Shown: one piece after another, positions 9,194 through 59,592 of the stretch
Position numbering within the stretch: the stretch's first letter is position 1
Layout: each line of letters begins with the position of its first letter
Assembly: GCA_964016885.1 (NCBI GenBank)
Contig: OZ024742.1
Coordinates: 308,760,001 to 308,824,000 of the forward strand
Source of the DNA: Eledone cirrhosa
Lineage: Eukaryota
Direction of reading: 5' to 3'
Length of the DNA: 64,000 nt
Notes under the pieces: model-generated
Told to the model about the DNA's origin: nothing
Databases searched by the model: none
The model's input: only the letters and a program-made list of their open reading frames with translations
Program-made: the position numbers and the translations under genes

Positions 9194-9195
<2 letters not shown>

Positions 9196-9390
9196 CTAAG
9201 GAAGTGTGGTAAGGAACCAGGTAGACCATAACGCACCAGAGTACTCAATACTTAGGGTAGTAGAGTGGGTAATAGGAAAATGTTCAAGACCCCGACAGCA
9301 GAGATCAAGCCGTTTCGACGGCTATTACTGGACGGAAATAGACGTCGAAACGGCTTGAGCTCTGCTGTCGGGGTCTTGAACATTTTCCTA
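9194..9390 (-). mobile_element. Fold-back element, family A
   Basis: Inverted arms 9273-9326 and 9337-9390, ~80-bp tail on the left, (TA)n flanks. Confidence 0.8.
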
Positions 9391-9499
9391 TATATATATA
9401 ATGACTGCCCCTTCGTTATCGAGTATGGCCATTGCACGATAAACACACACACACACACACACATAACACACATATATATATATATAAATATATATTAAT

Positions 9500-9690
9500 A
9501 ATTAACGGTGCTGCAATCGAATGTGGCTTTTTAGCCAACCAATCAACCGGAAATTTATGATAAATTGAAGTGAAACCCAACAGGTGCGTGTTTTTTATTT
9601 GCAGCATGACCCTCCCTAAGTATAACAATATCTGTTTCAACACACGCTTTTAGATAAGAAATCTTGCAAAACAAATTCAAAAACGAAACA
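9500..9690 (+). mobile_element. Family D 3' end with tail
   Basis: catgaccctccc(t)aagtataacaatat plus tail; homologous to 41891-42247, 59604-60073 and 60439-60770. Confidence 0.65.
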
Positions 9691-9709
9691 TATATATATA
9701 TATATATGT

Positions 9710-9845
9710 ATAGGAACAAGTATGACCCCGACAGCAGAGCTCTGCTGTCGGGGTCATACTTGTTCCTATTACCCACTCTACTACTATAAGTATTGAGTAC
9801 TTTGGTGCGTTATGGTTCATCTGGTTCCTTACCACATTTCCTTCG

Positions 9846-9847
<2 letters not shown>
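9710..9847 (+). mobile_element. Fold-back element, family A
   Basis: Perfect 60-bp palindrome 9710-9769 centred on GAGCTC, then tail; (TA)n flanks. Confidence 0.85.
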
Positions 9848-9886
<39 letters not shown>

Positions 9887-9954
9887 ACGTAAAATAAGAA
9901 AATTTCTTTAAAAAAATTTTTTTAGAAAAATTAACTTACTTACTTAAATTTTCA

Positions 9955-10034
9955 CTCCAACTAATTAGTTTCTGCAATGGGATAAAGACAGTTACGCAAT
10001 GAACTGTTGAGAATTTCATTGCGTCATCAGGGAG
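9955..10034 (-). ncRNA. Type I hammerhead ribozyme
   Basis: ctcc-CTGATGA-cgcaatg...cattgca-GAAA-ctaattag-TT-ggag; palindromic stem III. Confidence 0.75.
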
Positions 10035-10507
10035 GTCATTCTCAGCCGAGTCTCCAGGCGATGCGCGGACACTGGGGACTCATATAAAAATAATAATAAT
10101 TCGGCAACTGGAACAGCTATCGAGGACTGGATTCCAGCCACTGAAAATTCTCACTGCCACTGATTATATGGCCGATTCTAAAGAATCAATCACGTGACAC
10201 AGAGGTTAGTCAGTAGGAATGGGATGGTAAGATGACAGACGCCTACTAACACCCCCAAAAATAAATTTAGAAGTGGTTTTGGCAGGTTTGCTCGACAAAT
10301 CAGTGATTTGGAGATAAATATAGATAATTTAATATATCTACTAACATAAGCGCACAGATGTACGCTAATGCCAGCAAATACACAGGTTATGTCATAGTAC
10401 CTAGGTGGTTCAATGCAGGAGAATGCAGAACAATAATATATAAGACGTAAAATAAGAAAATTTCTTAAAAAATTTTTTTTAGAAAAATTAACTTACTTAA
10501 ATTTTCA

Positions 10508-10587
10508 CTCCAACTAATTAGTTTCTGCAATGGGATAAAGACAGTTACATAATGAACTGTTGAGAATTTCATTGCGTCATCAGGGAG
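10508..10587 (-). ncRNA. Type I hammerhead ribozyme (second tandem copy)
   Basis: Same motif as 9955-10034. Confidence 0.75.
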
Positions 10588-12082
10588 GTCATTCTCAGCC
10601 GAGTCTCCAGGCGATGCGCGGACACTGGGGACTCATATAAAAATAATAATAATTCGGCAACTGGAACAGCTATCGAGGACTGGATTCCAGCCACTGAAAA
10701 TTCTCACTGCCACTGATCATATGGCCGATTCTAAAGAATCAATCACGTGACACAGAGGCTAGTCAGTAGGAATGGGATGGTAAGATGACAGACGCCTACT
10801 AACACCCCCAAAAAAAATGTTCACTCCAACTAATTAGTTTCTGCAATGGGATATATATATATCAAGCGTTATACTGATATGTATCTTCATTTGCTGTATT
10901 GTTTTTCGTTTACTTTTCACATACACTTATATATATGTGTGTAAGTCCCTGTAGAAGCCATTTCTATATTAAACATGATATTATATATATATACTCTCTA
11001 TTCTTAGTTTGTGTTTTTGGTGTGTTTTCAAAAAAATTTTTTTTTGAAAAATTAACTTACTTAAATTTAGAAGTGGTTTTGGCAGGTTTGCTCGACAAAT
11101 CAGTGATTTGGAGATAAATATAGATAATTTAATATATCTACTAACATAAGCGCACAGATGTACGCTAATGCCAGCAAATACACAGGTTATGTCATAGTAC
11201 CTAGGTGGTTCAATGCAGGAGAATGCAGAACAATAATATATAAGACGTAAAATAAGAAAATTTCTTTAAAAAAATTTTTTTAGAAAAATTAACTTACTTA
11301 AATTTTCACTCCAACTAATTAGTTTCTGCAATGGGATATATATATATCAAGCGTTATACTGATATGTATCTTCATTGTACAGTATCATTTGCTGTATTGT
11401 TTTTCGTTTACTTTTCACATACACTTATATATATGTGTGTGTGTGTAAGTCCCTGTAGAAGCCATTTCTATATTAAACATGATATTATATATATATACTC
11501 TCTATTCTTAGTTTGTGTTTTTGGTGTGTTTTCAAAACACAAGTACACAGGCATAAACATAATATACATAATGGGATATACATATGTATTTGTCTTCATA
11601 GCTGCTTGCGTGTTTGCGTTTATGTACGACTATTTCCGTGCGGATGTCTATGCCTAAGTATTCGCTATGACTGAAGAAAAATGCAAAAGTAAGGCGATAA
11701 ACAAAAACGATGACGGAGTGTGTGTGTGTGTGTGATGTGCGTGAATATATAGTTCGTTTGTGTAAACATGATTATTCATATGAAATAAGAATAAGAATAA
11801 TATATCGCTAAATAAAAACATCCAAAATGTATTAAGAAATATATGGATAAATTGATGTTTTGATCTGAAGATTAAATACGAAACATTTTAAGGGATAGAT
11901 AAGCATCAGAAATAAAAAGAAATCTATAGTAGTGACCGATTCTTTGGTGTAATCTGACATTTCAAGATGTTTTCGATTGAGATGGGAAGAACAAAGGTAT
12001 TATATATATACATACATACTTATATTCGGGAGGAATATATATATATATACATACATATGTAGACAAGCATATATATACAAAC

Positions 12083-12135
<53 letters not shown>

Positions 12136-12501
12136 AGCATATATGTACAAAAGTTTGTTTATATATAGTTATATATATATATATTTGTGTGTCTGTGTGG
12201 GTAAAAGTGTGTTTATAAATAAACAAAACCAGACAAAAGCGTGAGGGATTCTGGAAGTAGACGTACTTATAATGTTGCAAAACGCTTTTGACCTTTAGAG
12301 TGATCGATAACAAAGCAGAAATATTTTTCAAAATCTATACGATAATATAAGAGGGTTTGGTTACGTTACAATAAGCAATTAGGTTGGTTCAAGTATTATT
12401 TTCTCGAGAGCAGTTTGTGTGATTGTTACATTATTAAACTATATATGTGAGTGGATATAAATATATATTTATGTAGGTATGTTTGTATGTACACGTCTAT
12501 G

Positions 12502-12568
<67 letters not shown>

Positions 12569-12669
12569 GTGTGTGTGAGTGTGTGTGTGTGTAAACATAT
12601 ATATATATATATATATATATACAAATATATATATACATATGTATATATATAAATATATATATATATATT

Positions 12670-12743
<74 letters not shown>

Positions 12744-12747
<4 letters not shown>

Positions 12748-12971
12748 AAAGAGTTTGGGAATTAAAGGATCAAGGAGTCCCACATAAGATTACTTGGAAT
12801 GTACTTGAACAGTCCAGATGTTATATCAACTGTACCAAGAGATGTTTCTGTCTCAGTGAAAGAATTAGGATATTACATGATTTGTCCTCTGCAATCAATA
12901 GTTATTTGAACTCTCAGAGCGATATGTTTCAAGGATGTCTACATCTGAAGAGCCAACTCCTTGTTAAGTGA
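12744..12971 (+). pseudogene. Penelope-like GIY-YIG endonuclease C-terminal fragment
   Basis: VWELKDQGVPHKITWNVLEQSRCY...KRCFCLSERIRI...YLNSQSDMFQGCLH resembles the PLE pattern IWELK..I.W.IL...Y...RC.LCL.EK..I...LN.RSE....CRH. Confidence 0.8.
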
Positions 12972-13316
12972 GAACACTCAATGACTTCACCTGATTTTCA
13001 TCTACCTTGATATTGATTTCTATATTTTGTTAATAATATTTCTATTTTCCACACTTACATAATACCGTACACATTCTACACTATTTAACTCCAAAACTTA
13101 AATAGAAATAAAAATCTCTATATTGCATACCCCACATAATATTATAAAGCTGCTATATTGAGTGTACTCAAACACACGGACTCTAACCCTAACCATTTCA
13201 ATTTTACATCTTAAGCTATTTCCCTCCGTTATACTAGAGAAATAAACATATAAATATGTTTTCCATAAAGGAGCGTTTAACACGCTATATTTTTAACAGT
13301 ATCTTCAACATCGTCC

Positions 13317-13426
13317 AAGAGCCTGCTGACTAGGTCACAAATTTGATCGCTCTTCTCCTCTCTTTACCACAGTTTACAATGTGGAGAGATTGTCACAATT
13401 GAACCTTGAAACCTTAGGTAGCGCTT
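13317..13426 (+). ncRNA. Degenerate type I hammerhead ribozyme in the PLE 3' region
   Basis: aagagc-CTGcTGA (A6 mutated)-long stem II-GAAA-cc tta gg-TA-gcgctt. Confidence 0.55.
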
Positions 13427-13462
13427 TTTGTTCCGTGTATATATATATATATATGTGTGTGT

Positions 13463-13580
13463 GTAACGCGGAGTTACTGTAGGTTCACCCGGGTGAACAC
13501 TCGATGCTTAGGTTCACGTCAGTATCAAGGTGTAGAGCTAGACAGAGTATAATATAATAAGGAGTAACCACTCGTCCTTG
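13463..13580 (-). mobile_element. Isolated PLE-like tail
   Basis: Minus strand reads ACTCtg...atcGAGTGTT and ends at a (CA)/(TA) tract. Confidence 0.45.
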
Positions 13581-13803
13581 TATTATTATTATTATTATTG
13601 GTCTAAGCGGACGTATTTTGCTCGCTCCCAGTAAATCGCTTTATTTGCCTGTTAAAATTATTTGTTGTTAAATATTTCTTTTGGGTAAGGGATATAAGCC
13701 CTTAGACTTTGCCCCGGAAAGGGGAAAGTATAATATTTGGGCCTTTTGGCCCAAATATTTGAACTTTTTTTACATGTTAAAAAATTTACGAAGAAAAAAA
13801 AAC

Positions 13804-15751
13804 ATGGCTGAGCCACGCCCCCCAGCGATATGTCGGCTGTCGTGCGACAACGACGTAGAAGTTGAGAGGAGCGCTACAGCGAAATTTACACACATTGATA
13901 ACACAAACACCACCACAAACAAGGGACACAAAAACACCAATGATACCAATAAGAACTCTAATTTTGAAAAAAATGACAGTAACAGCGACAACGAAAATAC
14001 AGATAACAAAAAAAAATAAAAAAAATACAACAACAATATCAACACCACTAACATGAAAACAAATAGCGACAACACCAACAGCAACAATACCAACTGCACC
14101 GAGAACATCGGTGGCAAAAAAGACAACAATGATAACAGCGACAGTGCTAACAACAACACCAACAAGAACAACGTCAACAACACCCCCAACGAAAACAAGA
14201 ACACTTTCGCTGCGGCAGCAGCAAAAAAGAGGCCATGCTTCAACATGGACCTCTCAAACAAAGATGAAAAGTTGGCCCAGGCATGGAAGCTCATCAAGCA
14301 AGAGCAAACTTGGGCCAACTTAACTGTCCCGGTAGAAGCTATTGAGGCAGTGGAGCGCAAAACGGTGCATTATAGATGCATCTCAGCACAAACCAAAAGG
14401 GCAGCTTTAATCCCACAAGAAGATGTCGAAGTCGCGCTGAGGTGCATCAGAGAAGACACCCAGTACATAGAGAGGGGCAGACAGTACGGCACCATTTCGG
14501 TGTTGTTCAAGTCAGAAGCCCTCGCTATGAAACACGCTATGACTCCTTGCAAAACCAGCAAGGTCATAATGTACCCCTCCCACATGGGAAAAAGAACGGC
14601 TCGTCTCCGCATTCCCAGAATCCTACCAGGACTTGACATGTGGTGGCTTCTGGGATGTGTGATTGTGGAGGGGACGGATACAGTCCCTATAGAAGTGACC
14701 AGAACGGCCAGAGAGGACTGGTCCGGGGTTGACCTGGAGATCCTTCTCCAGATCAGGCCCGAGAATGTGAAGACAATCCCAGACCACATCCGCCTTCAGA
14801 ATGGGACGGTCATTCACATTATGACCGAAGGTAAAAGGCCGCAGTGTTTTGTTTGTGGGGAAAAAACCCATTTGCGAGCCTTCTGCCCTCAACTGCTGAA
14901 AGAGGCAAGGGGTCGAAAGGCTCCACTGCTGCCGACGCCTGGGCGAGGACCACAACCAACACCAATAGAAAGACCACCACCAACATTGACCACCCAGGGG
15001 GGAAACGAGGAAAGCTGTCAAATTCCCCCTCCCCCCAAAAAATACACACACCAATAAAACCATAAACATACATACAGACACACTTACAGACACAGACCCC
15101 TCATCTACCAGTAGTGAAAATGAGGGAAATCCCAAATCCCCCAAAATACAAAAAAAGGAAACACAAAAAGAAAAAAAAACTCAACAAAGCACAAAAGCAC
15201 CCACAATAAAAAACGCAGACACCACCCACGCAAACATCTCTCCAATAACACCAACATCAACACCACCATCACCATCACCAGAATCCCCCAAACGCAAACA
15301 ACCGAAACAGACGCAAGAACAAATATACACACAAACATCTGAAACCACAGACACCGCACTCACAACAAACACAGATACAACCGAAACAACACCACCAAAA
15401 CCATCACCACCACAGCCACGCAAACAAATAAAATCACACCAACAAAAGATAGAAAACTTCGTGCTTGTCAGGAGGGCCAACAAAGAACTGATGGCCCTCG
15501 TAGCACGAAGTGAAAATATACAAAAAGAGGGGGAAATTTTAAAATCGAGCACATTTCGCGTGCCGGAAGATTTGGTTCTGGTGCGAATGTCGCTCGACAT
15601 ATTCAAAGAAATACGAGACAGCTTTCCTCGGGACGTGGGAACCCCGAACGTAAAACCCACTTCAAGACTTTTAAAGGGGTTCCCAAAAGAAACCCCACTA
15701 ACTATGGAGGTCGAACAACCCGACCTTCACAAGAGCCCGGATGGTAAGTAA
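13804..15751 (+). pseudogene. Tx1 ORF1, disrupted
   Basis: MAE start, Asn-rich tract, CFVCGEKTHLRAFC knuckle, T/P linker and a C-terminal domain homologous to copy 1. Confidence 0.8.
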
Positions 15752-15782
15752 ACATTCCTCTCTCTCTGTTTAACCTGCCAAC

Positions 15783-18700
15783 ATGGCCGTATTAAGAGTA
15801 GGATGTTTAAATGTTTGAGGCCTGGGATCGTCCTGGAAGCAGGGTCACCTTCTCAACGACCTCAGGTCTATAGAAATGGATCTAATTGCAGTCAGCGAGA
15901 CCAGGATTTCCGACACGCGCGCACTAGCCCCCATTTTCGACGACTATCAGATCTTTGCATCTGTTAGCCGGCCGGGAATGGGAGGCAGTGCTGTTTAGGA
16001 AAGGCCTGGATTGCGAGGTAAGGTCGATCTTCCGGGACCCGGACGGGAAGTTGGTGGTCCTGGACGTGAACAATAATGAAGGTGGTGCCTTTAGACTGGT
16101 GGCCGTCTATGCAGGATTGGGGCAGGACGGCCGGACTTCTTTAGACGCCTGGAAGCCTTTCTGGGTACAGCTCGCCCTTTACTGTTAGCGGGGGACTGGA
16201 ACGGCATCTTAGACGCACGCTGGGACTGTGTGGGAGTATCCGATAGGAGCGGGATGTGCAAAAGCCTCAAGAACCTGATCAGCCAGTTCCAACTGTCTGA
16301 CAGGTACCGACTAGATTTACCTAATGCGCCAGTGTGGACCTAGGCTAACCGCATAGGGTCATCTAGATCGTATATAGACAGGATATTCATTAGGAAAATA
16401 GACAGAAATAGTGTAAGCTGTCCACGTTTTGAAACGGTCGCCTATTCAGATCACAAGTTTGTGATCTGTATGGTCGACCTAGATAAGACGCGTAGGTTAG
16501 GACCTGGTTACTGGAAGCTAAACATGTCATTTCCGGCACGTAAGGCTTACAGATACCAGGTCAATAATTTAGTTAAGAAAAGGTTGACAGGGGGAGTCGT
16601 CAACAATAGATGGTGGGGGGCTCTCAAAAGAGAGATTACGGTAATGTCGATAGAGTTTAGCAAAGAAGTAGCATTAGAGAAAAATAGAAAGGAGGGAGAG
16701 TTGGTAGGTTAGTTAGACGAGGCTATTGGTAGTGGCATTGCAACTGATGTGTTAGCGGCGAGAATGGCATTAGACCATTTCTTCAATGCGAAACACGAAG
16801 GTTGCATTGTCAGAGCTAAGGCGCGTGCTCTGAGAAACGAGGGAACCAAAGCTGTTCAATGGGCCAGCGTGGCAGAGGCGCAGCGTGGTAATAAAACCAC
16901 GATTCGGTCTTTGACGGACCGAGACGGGCACGAGCTGAGCGATTCCAAGAGGATGTGTGAGGCCTTTCGCCAACATTTTGCTCGGTTGTTCGGGGGAAGT
17001 GGCGGGTCAGAGATGGTGGCGGACTTCAGTCCCTACCTCGATGGCTTGCCGCAACTCTCGACGGCTGACGCTGGGCGCTGCGAAAGGCCAATTACTTCAG
17101 CCGAGATTCAGGGTGCCCTTGTAGGCTGCATGAGGCGCAAGTCACCCGGTTTGGATGGTCTGCCCTACGAGCTTTACGTAAATATGCCAGACTTGTTCTC
17201 CAATCTCCTCGAAGCCCTCTACTGCAACTGGCAGCAAAACGGGAGTATTCCCAGTTCTGTGAGCCGGGGCGTAGTGACGCTGATAAGGAAAGACGAGAAC
17301 AAGAGTGACACATTAGACAATTTCAGGCCCATAACTCTGCTCAACACAGAGTTTAAGATTTTGGCCAGGGTGTTAGCGAAGAGGTTGGCGCTTGTCGTCG
17401 GGGATTTGGTTGGGGAGGCGCAAACTTGCGCAATCCCAACCAGGTCCATACACGACAACCTCCACCTAATATGATACATCATAGAGAGGGTAATGTGTAA
17501 ACCTGGCTTCTGGGTGGGGGGGACTCAGATCAATTTAGATCAATCGAAAGCATTCGATAGGTTCGACCATCGGTACCTGGAGGCTGTCCTCAAGGCGGCT
17601 GGCTTCGGCCCCGTCTTCAGAAGCTGGATCGCTGCAATGCACAGCGGCACCTGCTCGATGGTCAAAATTAATGGCCACCTCTCGGAACCGTTTCAGGTCT
17701 CCCGATCGGTCCGTCAAGGGTGCCCTCTCTCCTCCCTTCTGTACGTATTGACTCTCGAGCCTTTACTGTGGAAGCTGGAGCTGTTGCAGGGCATCCCGCT
17801 CGAACCGGGACGAGGAAAGGCCGTGTCGGCTTATGCGGACGACATCACCGTGATAGTGTCGGACACCTCAGAAATCGAGGTGGTCGGCAACTGATTGGAG
17901 GAATATGAAAGGTTGACGGGAGCAAAACTTAACCCTGAAAAGTCAGTAGGCTTGCAACTCGGCACCTGGAGAGGCAAGTCCATGCCGTCCAACAGCGTCG
18001 TTAGGCGCTGGACGGACGGACCGGTAAAGTTGGTAGGGGTTTGGTTCGGGCCAGACCTCCAGGTGGATAAGAATTGGGACGAGGTGACGGGCAGGGTAGT
18101 CAGTCTCACCCAGAAATGGGCTGGGATGAAGCTATCACTGAAAGGTCGGGCGGAGGTGGCGAACGCGTACATCGCGTCCGTCATCTACTACCGTCCCTTG
18201 CCCCCGTCCGCGCCTCGCCATCTTGGAGCGGCACCTCTTCAAATTCTTGTGGAGGGGTCAGGTTCCGCTGGTGAGGCGGTCCATCTGCTGCCAGCACCCT
18301 CTACGTAAGAGGGTTGGGCATGCCGTGGCTAATGATGCACAGGCACGCGCTGAGGCTGCGGCATCTCCAGATATTCTGCCTCAACGGTGAACAGGTGTGG
18401 TCGACGTTTGTCAGACGGGCCTTTCCGCAGCTTGTTTCTTTGACTGAGTTGCAGTCCTGGATCATGAAGAGACCGAGACTGGGTGACTGGCATCTGGAAT
18501 GTTGCCAGGCACTCACTGCCCTCTACCAGGCGGGCAATGCGGTCAGTGGAACGAAGTCGAACTAACCAGTCTGTACCGGAGGACTTTCGATCCAGGGACG
18601 ATGGATAATTTCCAAAAATCCCTCGCTTGGCAGTGCTACCGGGGGCACTGCCGGTTCGAGATAAACTCTACAGGCACGGAAGTGCTGTCAGACGGACCTG

Positions 18701-19115: not shown

Positions 19116-19410
19116 GTATGTAAATTTGAAGAGGAGAGGGGTGCCCTTCCAGGGTGCTCTCGAAGCGTCGGGTCGTTCAGGAAGGTGGGGTACCTGAGCG
19201 AACCCGAGGTGGTCATCCCCCCTATTGGGGAATTTTTTCTTGTTGTAATTTTATTGTTACTTTATTGTTACTTTGTTATTGTCACTTTGTTTATTCATAT
19301 TGTTTACTCGATTTTTCTGTAAAACCCCACTGTCCCAGTCTTTTGTATTGTCCCCTATATGTCGGCCCTTGTGGCCAATAAATGAAATCATTATTATTAT
19401 TATTATATAG

Positions 19411-23893: not shown

Positions 23894-24058
23894 TAGGAAA
23901 AGGTTCAGGACCCCGACGGCAGAGCTCAAGCCGTTTCGACGGCTTGAGCTCTGCCGTCGAGGTCCTGAACCTTTTCCTATTACCCACTCTACTACCCAAA
24001 GTATCGAGTACTCTGGTGCGTTATAGTCCACCTGGTTCCTTACCACACTTCCTCCGTT
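23894..24058 (+). mobile_element. Fold-back element, family A
   Basis: Palindrome with TTCG loop (23894-23979) plus tail; (TA)n flanks. Confidence 0.85.
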
Positions 24059-26112: not shown

Positions 26113-26137
26113 GTATATATATATATGTATATATATA

Positions 26138-26326
26138 AGGAAAAGTATGACCCCGACGGCAGAGCTCAAGCCGTTTCGACGGCTATTTCAGTCCAGAAAT
26201 AGCCGTCGAAACGGCTTGAGCTCTGCCGTCGGGGTCATACTTTTTCCTATTTCCCACTCTACTACCCTGAGTATTGAGTACTCTGGTGCGTTATGGTCCA
26301 TTTGGTTCCTTACCACAATTCCTTTG

Positions 26327-26328
<2 letters not shown>
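26138..26328 (+). mobile_element. Fold-back element, family A
   Basis: ~52-bp inverted arms plus tail, between long (TA)n tracts. Confidence 0.85.
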
Positions 26329-26392: not shown

Positions 26393-26650
26393 GTGGAAAA
26401 GTAAGAAATCGGAGAACAGGCCGTTAATACATGTTTATTTAAATAAACATGTATTAACGGCCTGTTCTCCGATTTCTTACTTTTCCACGTGCTTACACTC
26501 TGCTAACTCTTTCGCCCACTAGATATTAACACATCTAATATTTAATACTGCCGGCACTAGTATTGAGCACCTTCTGCATACGCTATTTGGCAAATAACTA
26601 CATGTATCACCTATCCTTCCTTTTTTTCTCTCTCTCGATACGTAAATACT
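26391..26650 (+). mobile_element. Fold-back element, family E
   Basis: Perfect 100-bp palindrome 26391-26490 centred on TTATTTAAATAA; 160-bp tail with ACTCtg...tatTGAGCAC. Confidence 0.8.
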
Positions 26651-33142: not shown

Positions 33143-33529
33143 AGAAAACGAAAAATCAGAATGCATCTGGACTTAGTTTATTTCGTGTTACAAATGTTTC
33201 GCCGGCATGTAGCTCGAGTCATGGTCCTTGTATGGATCTTGCTGATTCTACTTCTGCGGGTACTTTCAGACATGAGTGATAAAATTTGCTCCGGACATAG
33301 CACCCGTGTCTGAAAGAACCCGCAGAAGTAGAATCAGCCAGATCCATACAAAGACCATGACTCGAGCTACATGCCGGCGAAACATTTGTAACACGAAATA
33401 AACTAAGTCCAGATGCATCACTGATTTTTCGTTTTCTTTATAATATCTACACTCTATTCTGAGGAATATCGAGTGCTAATTTTGGCATACCGCCTATGGA
33501 AGCACCATAGCTACCACTATACACAACTG
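33135..33529 (+). mobile_element. Fold-back element, family B
   Basis: ~140-bp inverted arms and an 83-bp tail with the ACTC...GAGTGCT motif; (TA)n flanks. Confidence 0.85.
33305..33395 (+). ncRNA. Variant type I hammerhead ribozyme
   Basis: cgtgt-CTGAAAGA-long stem II-GAAAC attt GTA-acacg. Confidence 0.6.
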
Positions 33530-34180: not shown

Positions 34181-34666
34181 TTTCACCTTGCCTTAGATCA
34201 CCTAGGGGCTCGATCCTTGTAAGGACATGGCACTTCATGCCATTTTAACAGATTTTCCTCCACCTATTACGGTTAGCAGCATATTCCTCAAATACTGATG
34301 ACTGTATTCCAATATGCTTTATATTTTTCTTCAGTTTATCTTTGTATCTAAGAAGAAGTCTTCCTATGTTTCGCACCTCCGCTTAAAGTTGGCCATAAGT
34401 GGAAATTGTAGGCCGTCTATCATCATTCATCCTAGCAAAAAAGCTAGCCCACCGTAATCGAGACTTTATTAAGAAGGCCTCAGTGACATGTATAACAGAT
34501 TTATGAAAGAACTGTTTATTTGAGGCTTTGTATATGTATAATATACATATATAAATGAATTATATATATATTGTATTTATGTACGTATGTATGTGTATAT
34601 ATATATGTGTGTGTGTATATATATATACTGTATATATAAGTATGTATGTATATATATATAAACAAA

Positions 34667-35315
34667 TAATAGCTTTCACTGTATTTTTGACTAAAGGAAT
34701 TTTAGCCTGATAATGGGGTTTAGAACCCTCAGATAAATGGAAAAAGATGAGTATTGACGTACATGGAAGTCGAACCCACATCTTTGGTTATCGCGACCGC
34801 TGTGCTACCATTACACCAACACATCACCCTTCTCTTTCCATTCAAATTAGAAACTACATTCTTAGCGAGTTTAAATGGCAAGTAAGTATGTTTTGAAACA
34901 GTTAGCAGGTTTGAAATTAGAAAATAGAATAGCTTTCACCGTATTTTTGACTAAAGGAATTTTAGCCTGATGATGGGGTTTAGAACCCTCAGATAAATGG
35001 AAAAAGATGAGTATTGACGTACATGGGAGTCGAACCCACATACTTACTTGCCATTTAAACTCGCTAAGAATGTAGTTTCTAATTTGAATGGAAAGAGATG
35101 GGTGATGTGTTGGTGTAATGGTAGCACAGTGGTCGCGATAACCAAAGATGTGGGTTCGACTCCCATGTACGTCAATACTCATCTTTTTCCATTTATCTGA
35201 GGGTTCTAAACCCCATTATCAGGCTAAAATTCCTTTAGTCAAAAATACGGTGAAAGCTATTCTATTTTCTAATTTCAAACCTGCTCACTGTTTCAAAACA
35301 TACTTACTTGCCATA
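34667..35315. mobile_element. Tandem plus inverted ~260-bp repeat containing a tRNA-like cloverleaf (family I)
   Basis: About 1.4 units in one orientation (34667-35040) followed by one inverted unit bounded by atacttacttgccat (35040-35314); TA-rich flanks. Confidence 0.8.
35104..35174 (+). tRNA. tRNA-like sequence (pseudo-tRNA or SINE head); mirror copy at 34755-34825 on the minus strand
   Basis: Acceptor gatgtgt/gtacgtc, D arm gtgt-aatggta-gcac, anticodon arm tggt-cgcgata-acca (lacks U33), T arm gtggg-ttcgact-cccat. Confidence 0.55.
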
Positions 35316-36054
35316 TAAACATATATATAAATATGTATATGTGTGTGTGTGTGTGCATGTGTGTGTTTGTATGCACTTATAGATACACACACACAGTTTC
35401 TGAGTAAAGGTGACTGTATTTATTGTTGTTCCAGTCGAATAATCAATATTGAAACGAAATTTAAATACCATTTTACACATGAAAGAGGAAACGTCCGGTC
35501 TGTATCCTCTTAAGACCAAACTTAGTTACCTTAGCAACAACAATGCGTCTTAATCGAATGTCTCGGCACACTGATTCGTTTATCTATTTATTGTATTTAC
35601 AAATAATCAGTAAATTGTTTTTATATCATCAAACTTGTTCAATGAATAATTCAAATATTCCGTTACTATTCCCTTCGTCTATAAAGAAGTAAACTGCCAT
35701 AGAAACATATCCAAATTAACATTAATGTGTAAAGGGATAGCATTCTATAGATAGATGTACCCTTGTAAGACAGTGTGTAATAAGGTTGGCCCTTTGAATT
35801 TGAGGTATTTGAGGTACAGCCCTTCCGATGGGCTTCCAAAACGTTTCTGTTTCTCCAAATTCACTCATGAGACTTGAGCCGATGAAAAGCTATGATAAAT
35901 AACACCTGTCCAAGATGCAACATTGTGGGATCAAACCCGGTACTTAATGATTGCGAAGCGAACCACTCAAATATTTGGCCATACGTCCCCTTAGAAACCC
36001 TGATGTAGCGTTTAAAGTGATATATTTATTGATTGTAAAAAAAGAAAAATCAGT

Positions 36055-43335: not shown

Positions 43336-43472
43336 CCAAAGGTTAAACAAGGTTCATTGATTAATCAATGAATATAGTTTTACAATAGATTAGAAGCACT
43401 CAACAAAGAGTTTTCTGGAGTTATTAATATTAATTCAAAATATTAATAAATATAGACCTTCACGTAATCAAA

Positions 43473-43544
43473 ATATATTTTATTATATATATTTCGGAGG
43501 TACTGTGCTGTTTTTTCAGTACGTCCTCATCAGTTAAAATATAT
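43473..43544 (-). ncRNA. Type I hammerhead ribozyme
   Basis: Mirror of 43654-43725. Confidence 0.75.
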
Positions 43545-43653
43545 AAATTGATGTATGACATACCTCAACTGTGCTGATCGTTCAATTCCAGTTTTGACTG
43601 CCAAGACTGGAATTGAACCATCAGCACAGTTGAGGTATGTCATACATCAATTT

Positions 43654-43725
43654 ATATATTTTATCTGATGAGGACGTACTAAAAAAACAGCACAGTACCT
43701 CCGAAATATATATAATAAAATATAT
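43654..43725 (+). ncRNA. Type I hammerhead ribozyme
   Basis: atatattttat-CTGATGA-ggacgtact..agtacctcc-GAAA-tatata-TA-ataaaatatat. Confidence 0.82.
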
Positions 43726-44717
43726 TTTGATTACGTGAAGGTCTATATTTATTAATATTTTGAATTAATATATATATAATACCTGTCAACTAAATTTCCC
43801 CATCCATCCTAGGCTAGGGTGAAAGACTTTTGCTCTATGTGGCGTGCAATGGCATCGAACGTGAAACTATATATTTGTGAAACGAACATCTTAACCACGC
43901 AGCCATGTCTGTGTCCACACTTCGTATTAAACAATAATTATAACAACTAGAATATTGAGAAATTCTAAAAGCCATGATAATACTGGAATATATCAATCTA
44001 AGTTTGTAAGCTACTTGTAATCAAGAGTAATTTAGTAGTATGTAACATACCTTTGATAAGGGCTTTATGTGCTCTTACAGATGCGAGAAAACATAGACGC
44101 TCTCACAACTCTCAACATGTTGTTCTAGGTCTTCCATAACCATAAAAATTCGTGTCCCCAGGAAAGGTGCCACCTCAGAAGTTATACCTTCATATTTGGG
44201 AAAATATTTTTTATTTGCTCTTTGTAGAAACCTGGCACACCTGATCTCTCTCTCTCCTTCTCTCTCTCTCTCTCTCTCTCTCTCCCTCTCTCTCTCCCTA
44301 TCTCTCAATCTCCCTCCCTCCCTCTCTCTCTCCTTCTCTCTCTCTCTCTCTCTCTCTTATTTGATCCAGCGAAATGTCCAGGATGAGACTGCAGGAAGGA
44401 GAGGGGACTGCGCCACCACAGTGTTGGTACTTTATTTATCGATCCCAAAATGATGAAAGGTAAAGTGGACTACGACGAGATTTGAACTGAGAAAGACCGA
44501 CCTGGAACTCTTTAATGATTCTACCAAATCGACGGTATTTAAATACAACACAAAAGACATTACAAAAATTGTATTCTTCAAAACAACAAAAAGCTAAAAA
44601 GCAAAATCAAACTCAGACAGACTTCATTGAATGGATTTCATACAACTTTCGCCAACAACACAATCTACTGCAGCAATACAACAATATATATGTGCGTTTG
44701 TGTGTGTGCATATATGC

Positions 44718-48549: not shown

Positions 48550-48620
<71 letters not shown>

Positions 48621-48624
<4 letters not shown>

Positions 48625-48770
48625 AAAAGAGTCAGGATCTAGCTGTCGAAATAGCCGGAGCTCAGCCGTAGGGGTCCTGACTCTTTTCCTATTATCCACT
48701 CTACTATCGTAAGTATTAAGTACTCTGGTGCGTTCTGGGGTACCTGGTATTTTACTACACCCTCTTTGTT
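48621..48770 (+). mobile_element. Fold-back element, family A (short inverted arm)
   Basis: taggaaaagagtcagga / tcctgactcttttccta plus tail. Confidence 0.75.
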
Positions 48771-49000: not shown

Positions 49001-49038
49001 TACAGATTTGTTTTATAAATAAATATTGACATACCAGG

Positions 49039-49104
<66 letters not shown>

Positions 49105-49574: not shown

Positions 49575-50480
49575 TTGTGGAGTGGCAGTATCGGTTGCGG
49601 CATAGAGTCACGACCCTTTACGTTCTTAGTTCAAATCCCGCTGATGTTAGCTTTGCCATTCATCCTCCCGGGGTCGATAAATAAAGCACCAGTAATTCAC
49701 TGGGGTCGATTTAACCGACATTCCCCTCTCCCCAAATTGCTGGCCTTGTGCCTATAGTAGAAATCATTATTATTTTTTATTGAGGGCAGTGGATTTTCTT
49801 CCCTATTATTTCTTCAATATTGGGGCGGTGGATTGGCAGTATCGGTGGAGGGTCGGACGTCATGCTTTGCAGTATAGAGTTACAGCCCTTTATGATCTGA
49901 GTTCAAATCCCGCTGAGGTTAACTTTGCCTTTCATCCTTGCGGGGTCGATAAAATAAAGTACCAGTCACGCACTGGGGTTGATTTAATCGACTTCCCACT
50001 CCCCCCCCAAATTACTGGCCTTGTGCCTATATACGAAACCATTATTTCTTCAATATTAAGGAGATCGATTTAGTTACGGCTCTTTATGTTCTGGGTTTAA
50101 ATTCCGCGAGATCAATTTTGATTTCTATCCTCAAGGCTCCAATAAAAATCCCGCTGAGGTTTGCTTTGCCTTTAGTCTTTACGAGGTCGATAAAATAAAG
50201 TACCAGTCACGTACTGGGATCGATTTAATCGACTTTCCCCTTCCCCAAAATTGCTGGTCTTGTGCCTAAATCAGAAACCATTGTTAGTGTTACTGTTCTT
50301 GTTGTTGCTTTTGTTGTTGTTAACTCTTTACGTTCTGAATTCAAATCTTGTCGGGATCAACTTCACCTTTCATCCTGCCTCTATCTATAAAATAAGTACT
50401 AATCAAGTACAGGGACCAATTTAATCACTTTCTCCTCCCCCTAAATTTTGCTGACCTTGTCCCTATATTAGAAATTATTG
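49575..50480 (+). mobile_element. Head-to-tail array of 4-5 Meta-like SINEs
   Basis: Repeated core ctttgcctttcatcc...gtcgataaaataaagtaccag...ggccttgtgcct. Confidence 0.8.
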
Positions 50481-50960
50481 TTACTGGTATTGTTGTTGTT
50501 GTTGTCGTTGCTGTTGTTGTTGTTGTTATTGTCGTTGCTGTTGTTGTAATAACAACTTCTGTCCTTATATCACCATACACGTCCCTATTACTTCCATCGT
50601 GTAATTGGCTTATTGTTAGTAATTATACTGAAATAGCGATTTAAATTATATGCTAACTAGAATAACTTCCTGTATACATCACTACTTTTCACAAGAAAGG
50701 CATGAACACCACAGAATTATCAGTGGTACATCCCCCCTATATTTAAATCTGATTGATGTGTTGTGTCTCGTCAAAGCAATAATCAATCAATTTTAACAAA
50801 CTGCGCCTATGTCACGTCAGGCGAAAGTAGCATTCTTCCTCCAATAACACAAACACTTTCCTTATTGATTAGTATATCGATTTAGATGTCACTTCTTGCG
50901 CCATGTAATCAGCAATGGTATTTAATTCTTATATTTTTTTGTCTCTTGTTGGATTCTTGG

Positions 50961-50992
<32 letters not shown>

Positions 50993-53900: not shown

Positions 53901-55019
53901 TGTTTAGCTCAAGAACACAACACACCACCTGCTCCAGGAATAGAAACCACCACATTATGATCGCAAGTCCAACACCCTAACCACTCGGCCACGCTCTTAC
54001 TACAATAATTACACGAATTTGAATTGATAAAGTATATAACTGTCAATATTTGTTGTCGTTGTTGCATATTTTATAGTTATTACTGTTGTTTAACTCCAGA
54101 TCAGACTGATCCAGCACACGTATAATCAAAAGCGGTTCATCTATGATCATCGCCTCTTTTTTCCAAGCGATTGTACCACGTTATGACCAGATTATACAAT
54201 ATGTCCCTTTAATTTAAGAATCTGTAGGATGTAATATGAGAGAAATCTGGCTGGTGTATCTCACACGTCAATTAATCGCATAGAAGCTTTCTCGTTAACT
54301 CTTATAAAAACCAGTCAAAAGAGACAATGGGTTGTATAATTTCCCTGTCGCTTTTCAATTTGCTTTCTAAGCAAGACAATTAATTCTTAGATTAAAGAAT
54401 TCTATCTAACTGCAGATATGTATCACAAAGTAATGACAACACTTTGCTGTAAGCTATAATATAAGTACTGTTGAAATATATTTATAGTTGCTAATATTGA
54501 GATCAACTGTTCCTGTAGTTTGTGCTTTGTTGTGGAAAGTGAATCACTAAGATGTCATACTCAATAGGCACTACAAGACAACTAAATCTTCTGTAGTTGG
54601 TCCTACGACCTTAACAAGTGATGCCACTTATTATCATAGCTATAACTGCTGCAGAAAAAGTCAGCTACACGATGTTTGTAAATATATCTCGGCTAGGAAA
54701 AATAAAAGCACGTCTAAAATAATGGAACCGTTGTTGTTGCTGTTGTTTTCATGTGATTTAAGTTGTTTTTCATGGGGTTTAAGGTGTTGTTATTCGTGGA
54801 GGTTTAAGTTGTTTTTGTTGTTGTTCGTGGGGTTTAAGTTGTTCTTTGAGGTGATGAGGCTGTCTACATACTAATAAAGAGTACCAGTGATCGAAGGCTT
54901 TTCTATCATAGTGTAGCGATTCCCGCGAATCAAAGCTATGTAGCGAGCCACTTAAATCACTTCTGATCGATCGGGTATATAATTGAAAACGTTCCCGCAT
55001 TCCCCACTTCCTTTTGGAC

Positions 55020-55360
55020 ACAGCCTGACTCAGTGGTTAAAGAGTTCGCTTTGCCATCATTAGGTCCCGGGTTCTATCCCACTACATGACATCTTGAACA
55101 AGTACCACTTATCATAGCCCCATGAAATCCCATGATTGTAAGTTAAATTGGGTAGACGGAAACTACTTAATAGCCCGTCAAATAGATTCTACATGCAATC
55201 GAGTCAGACTTGTAATACAGTGTCACAATGTGCCTCCCTGAGAATTACACCAAAGGTACACGTGTCTGTGGAATGCTCAGATACTTACACGTTAATTTCA
55301 TTTACAAGCTGCTCTCTTGATTGCCCAACTGGAACACGCATCGTCGAAACCGATGGTGGC
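55020..55360 (+). mobile_element. tRNA SINE (CORE-type 3' part)
   Basis: Box A/B head; 3' part shared with 24600-24745. Confidence 0.55.
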
Positions 55361-55897
55361 CCATTCTATGTATATTTCTATTTGCAACACAGGATTTATT
55401 AAATCTACACATACATATCTTGTGTTTAAGTTATACCAACCACTGATGTAGTTCCTATGTAGTTATTACTCTATTCTAATATCAAAGTCCTTTCCTTTAC
55501 TTTCCTATACAACCAGATCAGCCCTTCTTTAATGTTATTATCAACACTACATATGTTTCACCGACCTCCTATAAGGTTAAATCTCGTAACATGTTCCTTG
55601 AGTGTTTAATGATAGGGGTTTCGGCCCTATAGTGTCCCTTTTCTTCGATAACAGGAATCGGGGTTTGAACTGAGAATACACAGAGCCGGAACAGATAATA
55701 CTGCAAAACACCTAGTTTAACGCTCTGTCAAATCCGCTAATGCGCCGCCACGGACAGATAGTTTATTTATCGATCCCGAAAGGAGGAAAGACAAAGTTTC
55801 CAACGAGCAGTAAAACAATGGCAGAAAGCAGTCGCCCCGACGCTCTAATGACTCTGATAATTCACCACATTTTTTAATAACATTATGCTTTCAAAAT

Positions 55898-56240
55898 AGG
55901 TGGAGGATTAACAGAGTCGTTAGAACGTCGAATAGAATGCTTTATGATATTTGTACCGGCTCTCTCTTCTCTGAGTTCGAATATCTCAGAGGTCAACTTT
56001 GCCTTTTATCCTTTCGAGGTCGAGATAAAAAGTACCTGTTTAGTACTGGGGTCGATTCTTCCTCTATATCTCTTTCTCATTTCCTCTCTCTCTCACTTTC
56101 TATCCTTCTCTGGAAGAAATCTGTTGTACTCAGGCTAGAAGAGGGAAGGGCTCCGCCAGGCTTAAAATGTCCAAGAAACGCCATATGTCAGTACGGTGCC
56201 CCTACTATCAGGAGTTACGAGACCATACACATTCTTTGAC
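55898..56240 (+). mobile_element. Meta-like SINE variant with an alternative tail
   Basis: See 27985-28225. Confidence 0.6.
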
Positions 56241-56482
56241 AGAGTTAACGCTATAATTCAAGGAGTCTTGCATTGGAAACTGCGAAAGTTTGTATCTTAC
56301 TATAATCAATAGTTGTACCTGGTAAGTGATTTAGTGTCAACCGGGAATCAAAACCAGACACACAGACTTTGCTTCTAGAAAGATTTAGCTGTCTCTTTTA
56401 CAACTTACATTTAATAAACTTAATAACATTAGTTTCGGACACATACACCATACGTGTGTGAAGAAAATACGTAAATTGAATA

Positions 56483-56770
56483 GTGTTGTATCATTGTTAT
56501 TATTGTTGTTGTCGTTGCTGTTATTGTCGTTGTTGTTGTTGTTGCCGTCGATGTTGTCGTCATGTTTGTTGTCATGGCTATTGTTGTTGTCGTTGTCATC
56601 GTTATCATTGTTGTTATTGCTCTCGTTGTTGTTTTTGTCGTTGTTGTTGTGGTCGTTGCTGTGGTTGTCGTTGTTTTTGCCGTTGTCATTGTTGTTGGTG
56701 TTGTTATTGTTGTTGTCATTGTTGTCGATGTTGTCGTTTTTGTCGTAGTTGTTGTTGTCGATGTTGTTAA
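56483..56770. repeat. Degenerate (GTT/GTC)n microsatellite
   Basis: Direct inspection. Confidence 0.9.
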
Positions 56771-58269
56771 GACCCGAGTGAACGACGATCAAGCAAGACC
56801 TATTATTAAAAACATTCCAGTCTTGACTATCCTATCTTTTTATATATGGGATTACATTGTCCAATATGTCCCTCCTGCTATAAAACAATAAGATGTTATT
56901 TGAGAGAATCTGGCTGATATCTCTTGCAGGTCTGGTGACCCGGTAAAACTCCCTCACTGACATCAATGTATGACTGCCACACCCAACAAGGGTATTGAAA
57001 GCGCAAGTAAAGATGAAATGCGTCAATCGAGAGTTGAAACCTGTTTTAACTGTTTTCAAGTTTAATTCCTTATCTACCTTATTCGGCATAATTAAACAAC
57101 TAATGCCGGTTTGTTTTTAACTGGTCAGAGGTCCCTCGCCATTAAATTGATCATATTGACAAATAGTAATAAAACCATCTATCAGCGTGTAGCACCATGT
57201 AATAGGAATACGAAAGCACATAGCTATTAGCTTTTGATCAAGATATTGCTAGAGAGGAACAAAGGTCAACTCTTAATATACTTCCTATATATCCTTTAAG
57301 TTCATTTAGAATTCTTGTCAGATTGCTTGCTAGTGAACATCCTATAACTATCGCATCTCATTCAAATAACGCATTCCGTTCGCGCTTCCTTTATCCATTT
57401 ATAATGCATCGACTTCCTATCTATCAAAGAGAATTTCTTCCAATATTTCCAATCTTTCTTTGAACAGATATTCGATTTGTAGCGAAGTAATCCCAGCTTT
57501 CTCCAGCCAATAACTACATTTTTCATAACTTGATTTCATTAACATTTTCTCTATATCACAAGAAGAGCTCTGATAAATTGAAGGAAATGTAGTGAGTATG
57601 TTGGAAAGATGGAGGTTAGTGGGGTAATTTTGAAATGCCTTACTATTAGTATGGACAAACGTGTCTGTTCGCAGCCTGAGTAACCTATGTATAAAGTAAA
57701 TCCGTCTTAGGCCCTTGACATCAATTGCGTTAAAGACATGCGATAGAATTAATTCATAAAATGTCACTCTCGGCCTAAGACATATTGGTCACTAAATCCA
57801 ACACTGAAAACGAAAGTGAAAACTTAAAGAAGATTATTAAATTATATTTCATCGAGGTAGTAGTAAACGATAATATATACTCTGACGTCACTAGGGAAAG
57901 TAGATCACAAGCTATTATAATATCGATTTTTTTTTTTAATTCAAGTAACAATATTTGCTTCAACTCAGCTATGCTATCTTCAACTCGTAACATGTACTGT
58001 TTCACTTCCATTAACGCTCACATAAATATCAATTCCGTCCCCAACCACCACCATTCTTATCATATTTCTATTGTCATTTTAATATCGGATAGTTTACACA
58101 AGTAGTGCCTGATCTTCGACGCTAGCCAGCTACTTACGCGACCATATATTGAATCGACATTATCAATTTAATGAGAAAATATATAAAATATTATATACTT
58201 CAAAAGTTAACTGCTACAAACGCACACACGAACATATATATATATCTATATATATATATATATATATAT

Positions 58270-58707
58270 ATAGTATAAAGAAACGAAAAATCAGTGATGC
58301 ATCTGGACTCAATTTATTGCGTGTTACAATTGTTTCGCCGGCAGGTAACTCGAGACATGGTCCCTGTATGGATCTGACTGATTTAACGGCTGCAGGTTCC
58401 TTCAGACACGGGCAGTTCGTTCGGAGCAAATTTGATCACAAATTGTATCACAAATTTTATCACAATTTGCTCCGAACGAACTGCCCGTGTCTGAAGGATC
58501 CTGCAGCCGTAGAATCAGCCAAATCTATACAGGGACCATGTCTCGAGCTACCTGCCGGCGAAACAATTGTAACACGCAATAAATTGAGTCCAGATGCATC
58601 ACTGATTTTTCGTTTCTTTATACTATCTCCACTCTACTCTGCTGAATATTGAGTGCTAATTTTGGCATACCGCCTATGGAAGCACCATAGCTACCATTAT
58701 ACACAAG
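58270..58707 (+). mobile_element. Fold-back element, family B
   Basis: ~160-bp arms 58270-58432 and 58464-58626; tail near-identical to 33447-33529. Confidence 0.88.
58486..58576 (+). ncRNA. Variant type I hammerhead ribozyme (mirror copy at 58320-58410, minus strand)
   Basis: cgtgt-CTGAAGGA-(t/a)cctgcag...ctgccggc-GAAAC aatt GTA-acacg; palindromic stem III. Confidence 0.68.
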
Positions 58708-58731
58708 TATATATATATATATATATATATA

Positions 58732-59283
58732 TGTAGATAAATCTACCAAGAGTTTACGGTAGTGTCCAATCCGTATGAAGAACTCAATGTAATCCGGATA
58801 TCATGGAAAGAAGAGATGCAATGAAAAATCACTTTCGGTGAAAGATAAACGGAATACAGAGTCAAGATAAAATATTAAAAAAATAATGAATAAAACAATG
58901 AAACAGTTCCTTATATTAAACAAAAAAAGTTCATTATTTAACGATCGTTTCTAGGATATATATGTGTTAGAATTGGCATGCATATTCAACAGATCTATGT
59001 ACAAAATTATACAAAATTATACAAACTATCAAAATTAAATATACATACCAACACATATATATGCCGTCTTCAGAAATAATTATTTCTGAAGACGGCATAT
59101 ATATGTGTTGGTATGTATATTTAATTTTGATAGTTTGTATAATTTTGTATAATTTTGTACATAGATCTGTTGAATATGCATGCCAATTCTAACACATATA
59201 TATCCTAGAAACGATCGTTAAATAATGAACTTTTTTTGTTTAATATAAGGAACTGTTTCATTGTTTTATTCATTATTTTTTTA

Positions 59284-59292
<9 letters not shown>
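58732..59292 (-). mobile_element. Fold-back element, family K
   Basis: Apparently perfect 426-bp palindrome 58867-59292 plus a 135-bp left tail with ACTCtg...atTGAGTTCT. Confidence 0.88.
59080..59225 (+). ncRNA. Type I hammerhead ribozyme with long stem II (mirror copy at 58934-59079, minus strand)
   Basis: ttattt-CTGAAGA-cggcatatatatgtgtt...aacacatatatatccta-GAAAC gatc GTT-aaataa. Confidence 0.8.
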
Positions 59293-59343
<51 letters not shown>

Positions 59344-59371
59344 TGGTTACACAACAGTTAGTTCACCATAC

Positions 59372-59409
59372 CGAGAATAATTGTTTCACCTTAGCGGATC
59401 TTCAGCTCG
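59372..59409 (-). ncRNA. Minimal type I hammerhead ribozyme
   Basis: cgag-CTGAAGA-t cc gctaa gg t-GAAAC aatt aTT-ctcg. Confidence 0.7.
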
Positions 59410-59423
59410 TAATGGGCATGGTT

Positions 59424-59592
59424 ATACGGAACGGATGTGGTAAGATACAAGGTGTACTATAACGCACCAGAGTACTCAATACATAGAGTGGTAGAGTGGG
59501 TAATAGGAAAAGAGTCAGGACCCCGACGGCTGAGTTCGGATCTAGCTGTCGAAACGGCTGGAGCTCGGCCGTCGGGGTCCTGACTCTTTTCA
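59424..59592 (-). mobile_element. Fold-back element, family A
   Basis: Tail on the left; arms gaaaagagtcaggaccccgacggc / gccgtcggggtcctgactcttttc. Confidence 0.78.

Follow-up and report, generated by a model that had tools for sequence, protein, structure and literature searches.

The window analysed here is a 64,000-nt stretch of the Eledone cirrhosa genome (assembly GCA_964016885.1, contig OZ024742.1, forward strand 308,760,001-308,824,000), and all coordinates are relative to it. The window sequence contains six fold-back copies, all real, each set between its own (TA)n runs, with pairwise identities of 72-90%. Among copies of a 3.1-kb Penelope-like retroelement (PLE) they are the shortest, present as the following head-to-head stumps.

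9194-9391, (-) strand: stump 1, with both arms (inverted and direct) and the tail of the PLE end, lying in (TA)n, with a short loop
9710-9847, (+) strand: stump 2, arms meeting via the palindromic GAGCTC of the predicted hammerhead loop III, with a 6-nt overlap (9737-9742) and no loop
23894-24058, (+) strand: stump 3, arm junction across the AGCCGT/ACGGCT inverted repeat, with a TTCG loop at 23935
26136-26328, (+) strand: stump 4, main subfamily, inverted arm at about 26136-26189, direct arm from 26190, tail at 26251-26327, short loop
48621-48770, (+) strand: stump 5, second subfamily, asymmetric arms, inverted arm of about 17 nt
59424-59595, (-) strand: stump 6, second subfamily, asymmetric arms, the inverted arm having the mismatch form ATGAAAAG as its outer end

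As stated in the preliminary description, the fold-back axes differ: the one at 9737 is GAGCTC without a loop, 23935 has a TTCG loop, the loops of 9194 and 26138 are short, and the arms of 48621 and 59424 are asymmetric. The inverted-arm outer end described as shared by all six, TAGGAAAA, is exact in three of them (9194, 23894, 48621), while the other three carry TAGGAACA, AAGGAAAA and ATGAAAAG. Similarly, the hairpin AGCCGT-CGAA-ACGGCT, within about 30 nt of which all 5' breakpoints were said to fall, is exact in three copies but imperfect in the subfamily of 48621 and 59424; this 'intrinsic hairpin' is an alternative fold of part of the predicted U3-A8 hammerhead, and the feature that actually marks the breakpoints is a sharp wall lying some 11 nt upstream. 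Four variants cited as private to single copies (atgttcaag, caagtatg, aggttcagg, agagtcagg) recur in slightly extended forms in 18, 4, 1 and 15 other arm contexts among the fetched loci, agagtcagg being common to two window copies, and are subfamily markers. No complete ribozyme is retained, as had been noted, although much of its 3' half survives in five of the six copies, and the part from loop III on in the sixth (9710).

A search for longer copies, which had been suggested, found arms of more than 1 kb and full-length tandems, with the predicted hammerhead and an ORF for reverse transcriptase (RT) and GIY-YIG endonuclease beyond the stumps; the architecture is the same throughout a continuous series that extends to copies with >1-kb arms surrounding ORF sequence. 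In the genome, 11,909 sites match a 29-base tail motif exactly. The unit is 3,101-3,139 bp long, and full-length copies are partial tandems carrying the pLTR and a 77-nt tail both before and after the ORF. The tail end, mostly with the pLTR, adjoins the ORF region upstream in most of 30 loci having the ORF start and in 18 of 20 extended loci.

Four features of endonuclease-bearing (EN+) PLEs were found: a single ORF with RT and GIY-YIG, with RT and VIY...YIG motifs in translated copies, partial tandems forming pLTRs, an inverted 5'-truncated copy with a one-sided tail, and a hammerhead motif in the pLTR. The features of the Hydra clade were DKT for DKG (SDKTGNLY in most copies), the CxCX5C linker (CNCPDRSTC), CxxC and CxH in the endonuclease (CNLC, CKH) with CCHH absent, and insertion into (TA)n, judged from the flanks. 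The GIY-YIG core contains one Cys only, and the N-terminal RWK position reads RWR, a conservative variant, in the copies read. The ORF is broken in every copy examined. It has 1,403 relatives at E<=0.001, one of which bears the name reverse transcriptase; Pfam returned no RT or GIY-YIG family and nothing relevant for five ORF pieces, nor did a PDB sequence search with one ORF piece return anything relevant, and the domain calls are based on motifs and by-eye comparison with published Hydra proteins. On these motifs, the element is an EN+ PLE, likely of the Hydra clade. Two other classes were considered and rejected. A MITE or foldback DNA transposon has inherited TIRs around a constant centre, which were not seen here; nor does the inverted repeat include the 77-nt tail. 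Non-LTR retrozymes are described as tandem units with a complete type I hammerhead in each (bioRxiv 10.64898/2026.07.22.740005); the stumps are dispersed, with at most half a ribozyme each.

Positions within the element (-138, -78, -1) were counted back from the tail end. In stump 4 the features are as follows.

26190, (+) strand: breakpoint wall (-138), the A of an initiator-like TTAGTC and the predicted transcript start
26190-26234, (+) strand: predicted 3' half of a type I hammerhead, comprising the stem II 3' strand, GAAA (26208-26211), stem III with a GAGCTC loop, and the stem I 3' strand
26230/26231, (+) strand: GUC cut site of the predicted hammerhead structure
26248-26250, (+) strand: start site A (-78), the fixed outer end of tail-less arms, with a TAT overlap with the (TA)n target
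26251-26327, (+) strand: tail, 77 nt, between the start sites; in full-length tandems it leads on to the 5' UTR and the ORF
26256-26282, (+) strand: bulged hairpin ACTC-stem/loop-TT-GAGT-ACT within the tail, with a second copy after start site B (-1) in full-length elements

The pLTR hammerhead, as modelled, is of the U3-A8 type, a PLE variant already published (PMC4209133), and its 3' half is retained in the stumps. The core UUGANAA was present in 59 of 62 long arms matching the pattern, 93.7% of cells were paired, and three stem II pairs showed compensatory change between the two subfamilies. Minimum-energy folding supported the hammerhead stems of the main subfamily (z -2.75) and not those of the second (z -1.34), and it did not single out the twin bulged hairpins; an Rfam scan of the window gave one tRNA-like match and no hammerhead. 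A ribozyme cleavage product serving as template was rejected as the cause of the breakpoint hot spot, since the predicted cut site is the end point of just 2 of the 89 direct arms and 1 of the 66 inverted ones.

The outer ends of the arms are fixed at two positions, -78 and -1, and the inverted arm begins at -78 in 59 of 71 copies. Among the long insertions, 23 of 25 had one end with the tail and the other without it, the tail being on the direct or the inverted end (hand tally; L068, whose second end was not seen, was dropped); L031 and L252 were the exceptions to one site per end. L207 was removed from the set of loci as a duplicate of L206. As 32 of 52 one-armed copies lack the tail, site -78 primes alone. 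The target-primer mismatch form (ATA for CTA) was found in the inverted arm only in 7 of 54 copies and in the direct arm only in none. Both start sites lie 4-6 nt upstream of the same bulged hairpin, a motif with 23 matches in 584 kb versus 0-2 in 20 local shuffles, and its ACTC/GAGT and GCTC/GAGC forms are present in unrelated families. Literature searches of PMC open access and bioRxiv listed no paper with paired hairpins or a transcript-start wall in its title or opening abstract lines, though subscription papers, Repbase and supplements may describe them.

A breakpoint histogram, another check that had been proposed, placed the pile-up of inner ends at -138, about 11 nt upstream of the hairpin. 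With 8 of 60 loci set aside for arm remnants, 52 one-armed copies were left, of which 25 ended at -138/-139, 26 were shorter, and one extended beyond (search reach about -159). Ends within -146 to -128 were found for 50 of the 89 direct arms and 52 of the 66 inverted ones, and a minority of two-armed copies reach -140 to -172. Joining at -139/-138 is favoured by a TA shared by target and element, which makes the peak higher than it would otherwise be (14 of the 25). The wall recurs at the homologous AGT of the second subfamily despite a different stem II insert, the pattern that fixed the AGT, and copies of a third, unrelated family also end at an AGT, several with a preceding G, at few independent loci. 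The wall, at an initiator-like motif, is probably a transcript start inside the pLTR, where the promoter and RNA start of a PLE have been reported (PMC2377424). A TATA-like motif 31 nt upstream (-169) occurs in the main subfamily only; its absence from the second speaks against the transcript-start reading, and it was given no weight as promoter support. A 3' splice site at TTTAG was rejected because the AG remains in the copies.

Capped full-length L1 copies are marked by an extra G (PMC11702581). In hand tallies of the first 100 listed copies, the base before -138 was G in 14, C in 5 and A in 4 copies joined straight to (TA)n, and G in 23, C in 14 and A in 6 in the second subfamily. The scripted test was not significant (6/25 versus 3/27, Fisher p 0.28), and an extra cap-type G at -138 is suggestive only. 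A junction G or C may also come from the opposite arm, from TG/CA target variants or from a minor TCAGT master variant. This null result, together with the location of the breakpoints on the stem II 3' strand, is compatible with a different origin of the wall for the same twin-primed element, namely RT stalling or strand displacement in the long hammerhead stem II, where refolding RNA could push the cDNA off, or a processed RNA end. We consider this unlikely, given that the peak spans a single base, that hardly any ends lie upstream of it and that the AGT ends are found again in the second subfamily, with its differing stem II insert, and at the few loci of the third family.

The claim that the inversion is made anew at each insertion was borne out by arm likeness within loci, varied junctions and locus-specific shared variants. 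In an arm-versus-arm comparison of 56 short copies, left arms did not group with left arms: the left-right distance within a locus was 0.080, compared with 0.109 for left-left, 0.105 for right-right and 0.107 between loci (permutation p 0.0002). Of 53 doubleton variants at 19 long loci with two arms, 24 linked the arms of a single locus (2.7% expected), and in the tree 11 of the 19 arm pairs were sisters. The variable segment was identical between arms in 33 of 54 copies, with 11.3 expected and a maximum of 19 in 5,000 shuffles. Thus both arms of a copy derive from one source; gene conversion between arms could also have produced shared variants. Left and right breakpoints were uncorrelated (rho 0.002), and 71 copies had 61 distinct junction types.

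These data bear on two further explanations. An inherited palindromic non-autonomous element, either MITE-like or with a SINE-like master, whose centre decays after insertion, could account for the 15 of 50 first-listed loci with a single C:G pair between arms ending at -138 (hand tally) and for subfamily markers common to both arms. However, no column splits left from right arms except the priming mismatch, and the number of junction types, the continuity up to >1-kb arms and the pairing of arms by private variants all argue against it; this reading is already largely refuted, and we regard it as very improbable. A single tail-end cDNA that folds and copies itself into an inverted arm is only slightly less improbable. 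Self-priming has been proposed for rotifer PLEs (PMC3846280), snap-back junctions have been observed with R2 proteins (PMC11371274), and many junctions here have short overlaps, such as GAGCTC at 9737. Yet 25 of 66 copies have an inverted arm whose upstream end lies 12 nt or more beyond that of the direct arm (about four being alignment artefacts at -145/-146), a difference that one snap-back could not produce. Tail-less solo copies also exist, and self-copying leaves the fixed -78 stop and the target-type mismatch there unexplained.

We favour, with reasonable confidence, the reading that the stumps are short 5'-truncated EN+ PLE insertions in which both cut (TA)n ends primed on the same RNA. 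Transcription would start at -138, inside the pLTR, and the enzyme would bind the two bulged-hairpin copies as putative sites, with reverse transcription beginning 4-6 nt upstream of each. When the 5' site pair is used, each cDNA would reach the RNA 5' end and run off, one after about 61 nt and the other after about 138 nt; trimming and then head-to-head joining, through short overlaps or the addition of a few bases, would explain the varied axes. Long copies would result where priming takes place in the downstream unit of a tandem transcript. Two internal RT start sites that define the tail, and extension on both strands in vitro, have been reported for another PLE (PMC11167929). More tentatively, and with slightly less than even confidence, a clade-wide RCTC-stem/loop-NN-GAGY-RCT hairpin pair of Hydra-type Penelope elements may bind a dimeric RT-endonuclease, one hairpin per target strand, with run-off at the capped end giving a strong-stop-like palindrome. 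If true, the paired-hairpin model would unite the tail, inverted pLTR and junction palindrome of Penelope elements in one mechanism, and the ribozyme would determine how many stumps form relative to full-length copies, because an intact 3' pLTR hammerhead would cut off the downstream site pair, the 5' pair being cleavage-proof. With its tens of thousands of genomic records, its three landmarks placed to the base (-138, -78, -1) and a small candidate RNA signal before each start site, the family opens the twin-priming and run-off model to direct testing by means of short synthetic RNAs.

The element class is known, and an inverted end with a one-sided tail is the published PLE layout, the origin of which is posed as an open question in PMC8557442, with a partial in vitro answer in PMC11167929. 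The element resembles the Hydra-clade PLEs described by Craig et al. 2021 (PMC8557442) in its C-terminal GIY-YIG, DKT, CxCX5C linker, CxxC and CxH without CCHH, (TA)n target, 3'-end hammerhead, inverted 5'-truncated copy and one-sided tail. It differs in having RWR rather than RWK, a U3-A8 core with a long stem II rather than the canonical core, and a 77-nt tail, compared with the 30-40 stated there, in a 3.1-kb unit. In by-eye comparison it belongs to another family than Hydra-1_Obim, from which it differs in its hammerhead and ends. It shares with green anole Poseidon PAc (PMC11167929) two internal RT start sites bracketing the tail and an AT-rich target cut and extended on both strands, and uncleaved RNA as the main PAc template is counted as a further likeness; the PAc sites, however, lie within the ORF in an AC-rich stem-loop, whereas here they are in the 5' UTR, 77 nt apart, with a bulged hairpin after each. 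Adineta vaga Pen and D. virilis Penelope (PMC3846280, PMC2377424) likewise have an inverted pLTR, an optional tail, inverted-junction palindromes, and a promoter and RNA start within the pLTR, the latter predicted here; self-priming was proposed for them, whereas the counts here favour two target-primed cDNAs. Finally, as in L1 twin priming (PMC11702581), both target ends would prime one RNA and the cDNAs would be end-joined to give an inversion. The second L1 priming is internal and variable, and its pieces barely overlap, whereas here both sites are fixed and both cDNAs would copy the same stretch, giving a palindrome.

The six fold-backs of the preliminary description, short copies (stumps) of a Penelope-like retroelement (PLE) composed of an inverted arm, a direct arm and a 77-nt tail, were all confirmed in place, each within its own (TA)n run, and their axes differ among copies as described.

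9194–9391, minus strand: stump
9710–9847, plus strand: stump
23894–24058, plus strand: stump
26136–26328, plus strand: stump of the main subfamily (copy 26138)
48621–48770, plus strand: stump of the second subfamily
59424–59595, minus strand: stump of the second subfamily

Element positions are numbered backwards from the tail end, with -1 at position 26327 of the window. When the 3′ part of copy 26138 was used as a query against its own genome, near-identical copies were found on many contigs, some of them reaching far upstream. In copies retrieved via the start of the open reading frame (ORF), arm and tail also directly precede the ORF region. This makes the unit, 3,101–3,139 bp in size, a partial tandem; its first Met lies some 93 nt past -1. 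A Pfam search recognized none of the ORF pieces, and the ORF motifs agree with those listed for the Hydra clade in PMC8557442, with the exception of RWR versus RWK. The family was not found among six new published Hydra consensus sequences. The class and layout of the element are already known; the mechanistic reading had no match in the searched literature. The genome contains 11,909 exact matches to a 29-base motif of the tail, and nine copies in evenly spaced stretches totalling 520 kb suggest, by rough extrapolation, roughly 50,000 copies in the genome.

The origin of the inversions was investigated in 89 loci selected by the tail motif alone (the first 90 places listed on one contig, C1, minus one duplicate), plus the window copies. 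The 71 two-armed copies had 61 distinct breakpoint pairs, and left and right breakpoints showed no correlation. Arms of the same locus were nearest to each other (distance 0.080, below every between-locus class, 0.105–0.109), and in 33 of 54 copies the two arms did not differ in the variable segment (11.3 expected), though the variants named as private in the preliminary description are subfamily markers. The long arms of 19 loci, counted as a stronger test than these short-copy comparisons, gave sister arm pairs at 11 loci, and 24 of the 53 variants seen exactly twice paired the two arms of one locus (2.7% expected). Given this sharing within loci, both arms were therefore copied from a single source at each insertion; gene conversion between arms, which could also cause shared variants, is the alternative. 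Together with the distinct junction pairs, these doubletons support the earlier proposal that the inversion is created anew at each insertion.

Outward arm ends lie at -78 or -1, and at either position TAT overlaps the target sequence. Among long insertions with both ends visible, tallied by hand, 23 of 25 had one end at -78 and the other at -1, in either orientation, and solo copies without a tail were common (32/52). The outer end reads ATA instead of CTA in the inverted arm alone in 7 of 54 copies, as would be expected from a (TA)n primer extended over a mismatch. A single snap-back, as the origin of the inverted arm, cannot yield inverted arms reaching further upstream than direct arms, which were seen in about a third of the copies (25/66, about four of them artefactual). 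Pieces of the reverse transcriptase (RT) ORF lie between the two arms, as template switches at the junction, at three loci (L010, about 1640–1770; L219; L190). Multiple stumps, often of different subfamilies, adjoin one another within a single (TA)n run at L013, L063, L175, L193, L240, L261 and L278.

Inner ends fell within -146 to -128 in 50 of 89 direct arms and 52 of 66 inverted arms. This wall is clearest in copies joined directly to (TA)n (n = 52; the first 60 distinct places among 365 matches, minus eight arm remnants): 25 stop at -138/-139, 26 fall short of it and one is longer within reach of the pattern; 14 of those 25 are explained by a TA overlap. The base at -138 is the A in TTAGTC (second subfamily: TTAGTT or TCAGTT), a motif resembling the Drosophila initiator consensus. 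Hand tallies of the base before -138 gave G 14, C 5 and A 4, and, in the second subfamily, G 23, C 14 and A 6; junctions with a single C:G pair numbered 15 of 50, versus one with an A:T pair. An untemplated G would mark a copied cap (PMC11702581), and the hand tallies lean toward such a G; when G before -138 was compared with other positions by script, the difference was not significant (p 0.28). We consider it fairly probable that -138 is the transcript start.

The long arms have a predicted type I hammerhead fold: core UUGANAA, long stem II, GAAA, stem III closed by a palindromic GAGCTC loop, GUC and then stem I. In three stem II pairs both partners differ between the subfamilies, which probably represents few events because there are only two lineages. 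The hairpin described earlier as intrinsic overlaps the 3′ strand of stem II, GAAA and the 5′ strand of stem III and is thus an alternative fold. Arms ending at the predicted cut site are few (2/89 direct, 1/66 inverted).

A bulged hairpin motif, RCTC-stem/loop-NN-GAGY-RCT, begins 4–6 nt past each start site (-78 and -1), one copy within the tail and one just past it. In 584 kb there are 23 occurrences (0–2 in shuffles), spread over at least eight unrelated sequence families whose inner stems differ, and often followed by 35–65 nt and then (TA)n. The hairpin is a putative protein-binding site; alternatively, the palindromic GAG-YR-CTC within it could function at the DNA level. Other elements in the window were as follows.

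58270–58680 and 33276–33480: another fold-back family in (TA)n, unrelated to the first; hammerhead-like CTGAAGGA...GAAAC
43380–43776: palindrome with 175-bp arms, each bearing a hammerhead of canonical appearance (CTGATGA...GAAA); minus-strand tail hairpin
58867–59292: perfect palindrome with 213-bp arms, CTGAAGA...GAAAC, (TA)n at the end
34661–35320: nested inverted repeats in (TA)n, enclosing a tRNA-like sequence (35103–35175)
26393–26490: perfect palindrome, about 98 bp, directly past the (TA)n run of copy 26138
3124–8097 and 14020–17474: two LINE-like elements, identified by eye
19389, 23621, 37057, 49804, 62755 and others: dispersed SINE-like family, about 175 bp

The fold-back family at 58270–58680 and 33276–33480 shares the bulged tail hairpin, and its ends lie close to an AGT motif; it is likely another Penelope-like family, the palindrome at 43380–43776 likely a third of this kind, and that at 58867–59292 likely a further PLE stump. 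The tRNA-like sequence matched tRNA in Rfam and was called tRNA-Ser CGA by ARAGORN. By eye, the LINE-like elements carry ORF1 with a zinc knuckle and ORF2 with endonuclease and RT motifs, ORF2 of the element at 3124–8097 being interrupted by one stop. The SINE-like family may resemble an octopus SINE, which would suggest an octopus host.

Among published consensus sequences inspected by eye, the bulged hairpin was not seen in Hydra-1_Obim or Hydra-1_Amil, is present in altered form in Hydra-1_Crog, and is found at the ends of Hydra-1_Ajap (twice), Hydra-2_Ajap and Hydra-2_Amil. PMC2377424 places the RNA start of the D. virilis element within the pLTR, the repeat before and after the ORF in PLEs, as proposed here for -138. 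For an anole element, two internal RT start sites and extension on two strands have been shown (PMC11167929), and these fit the outer ends at -78 and -1.
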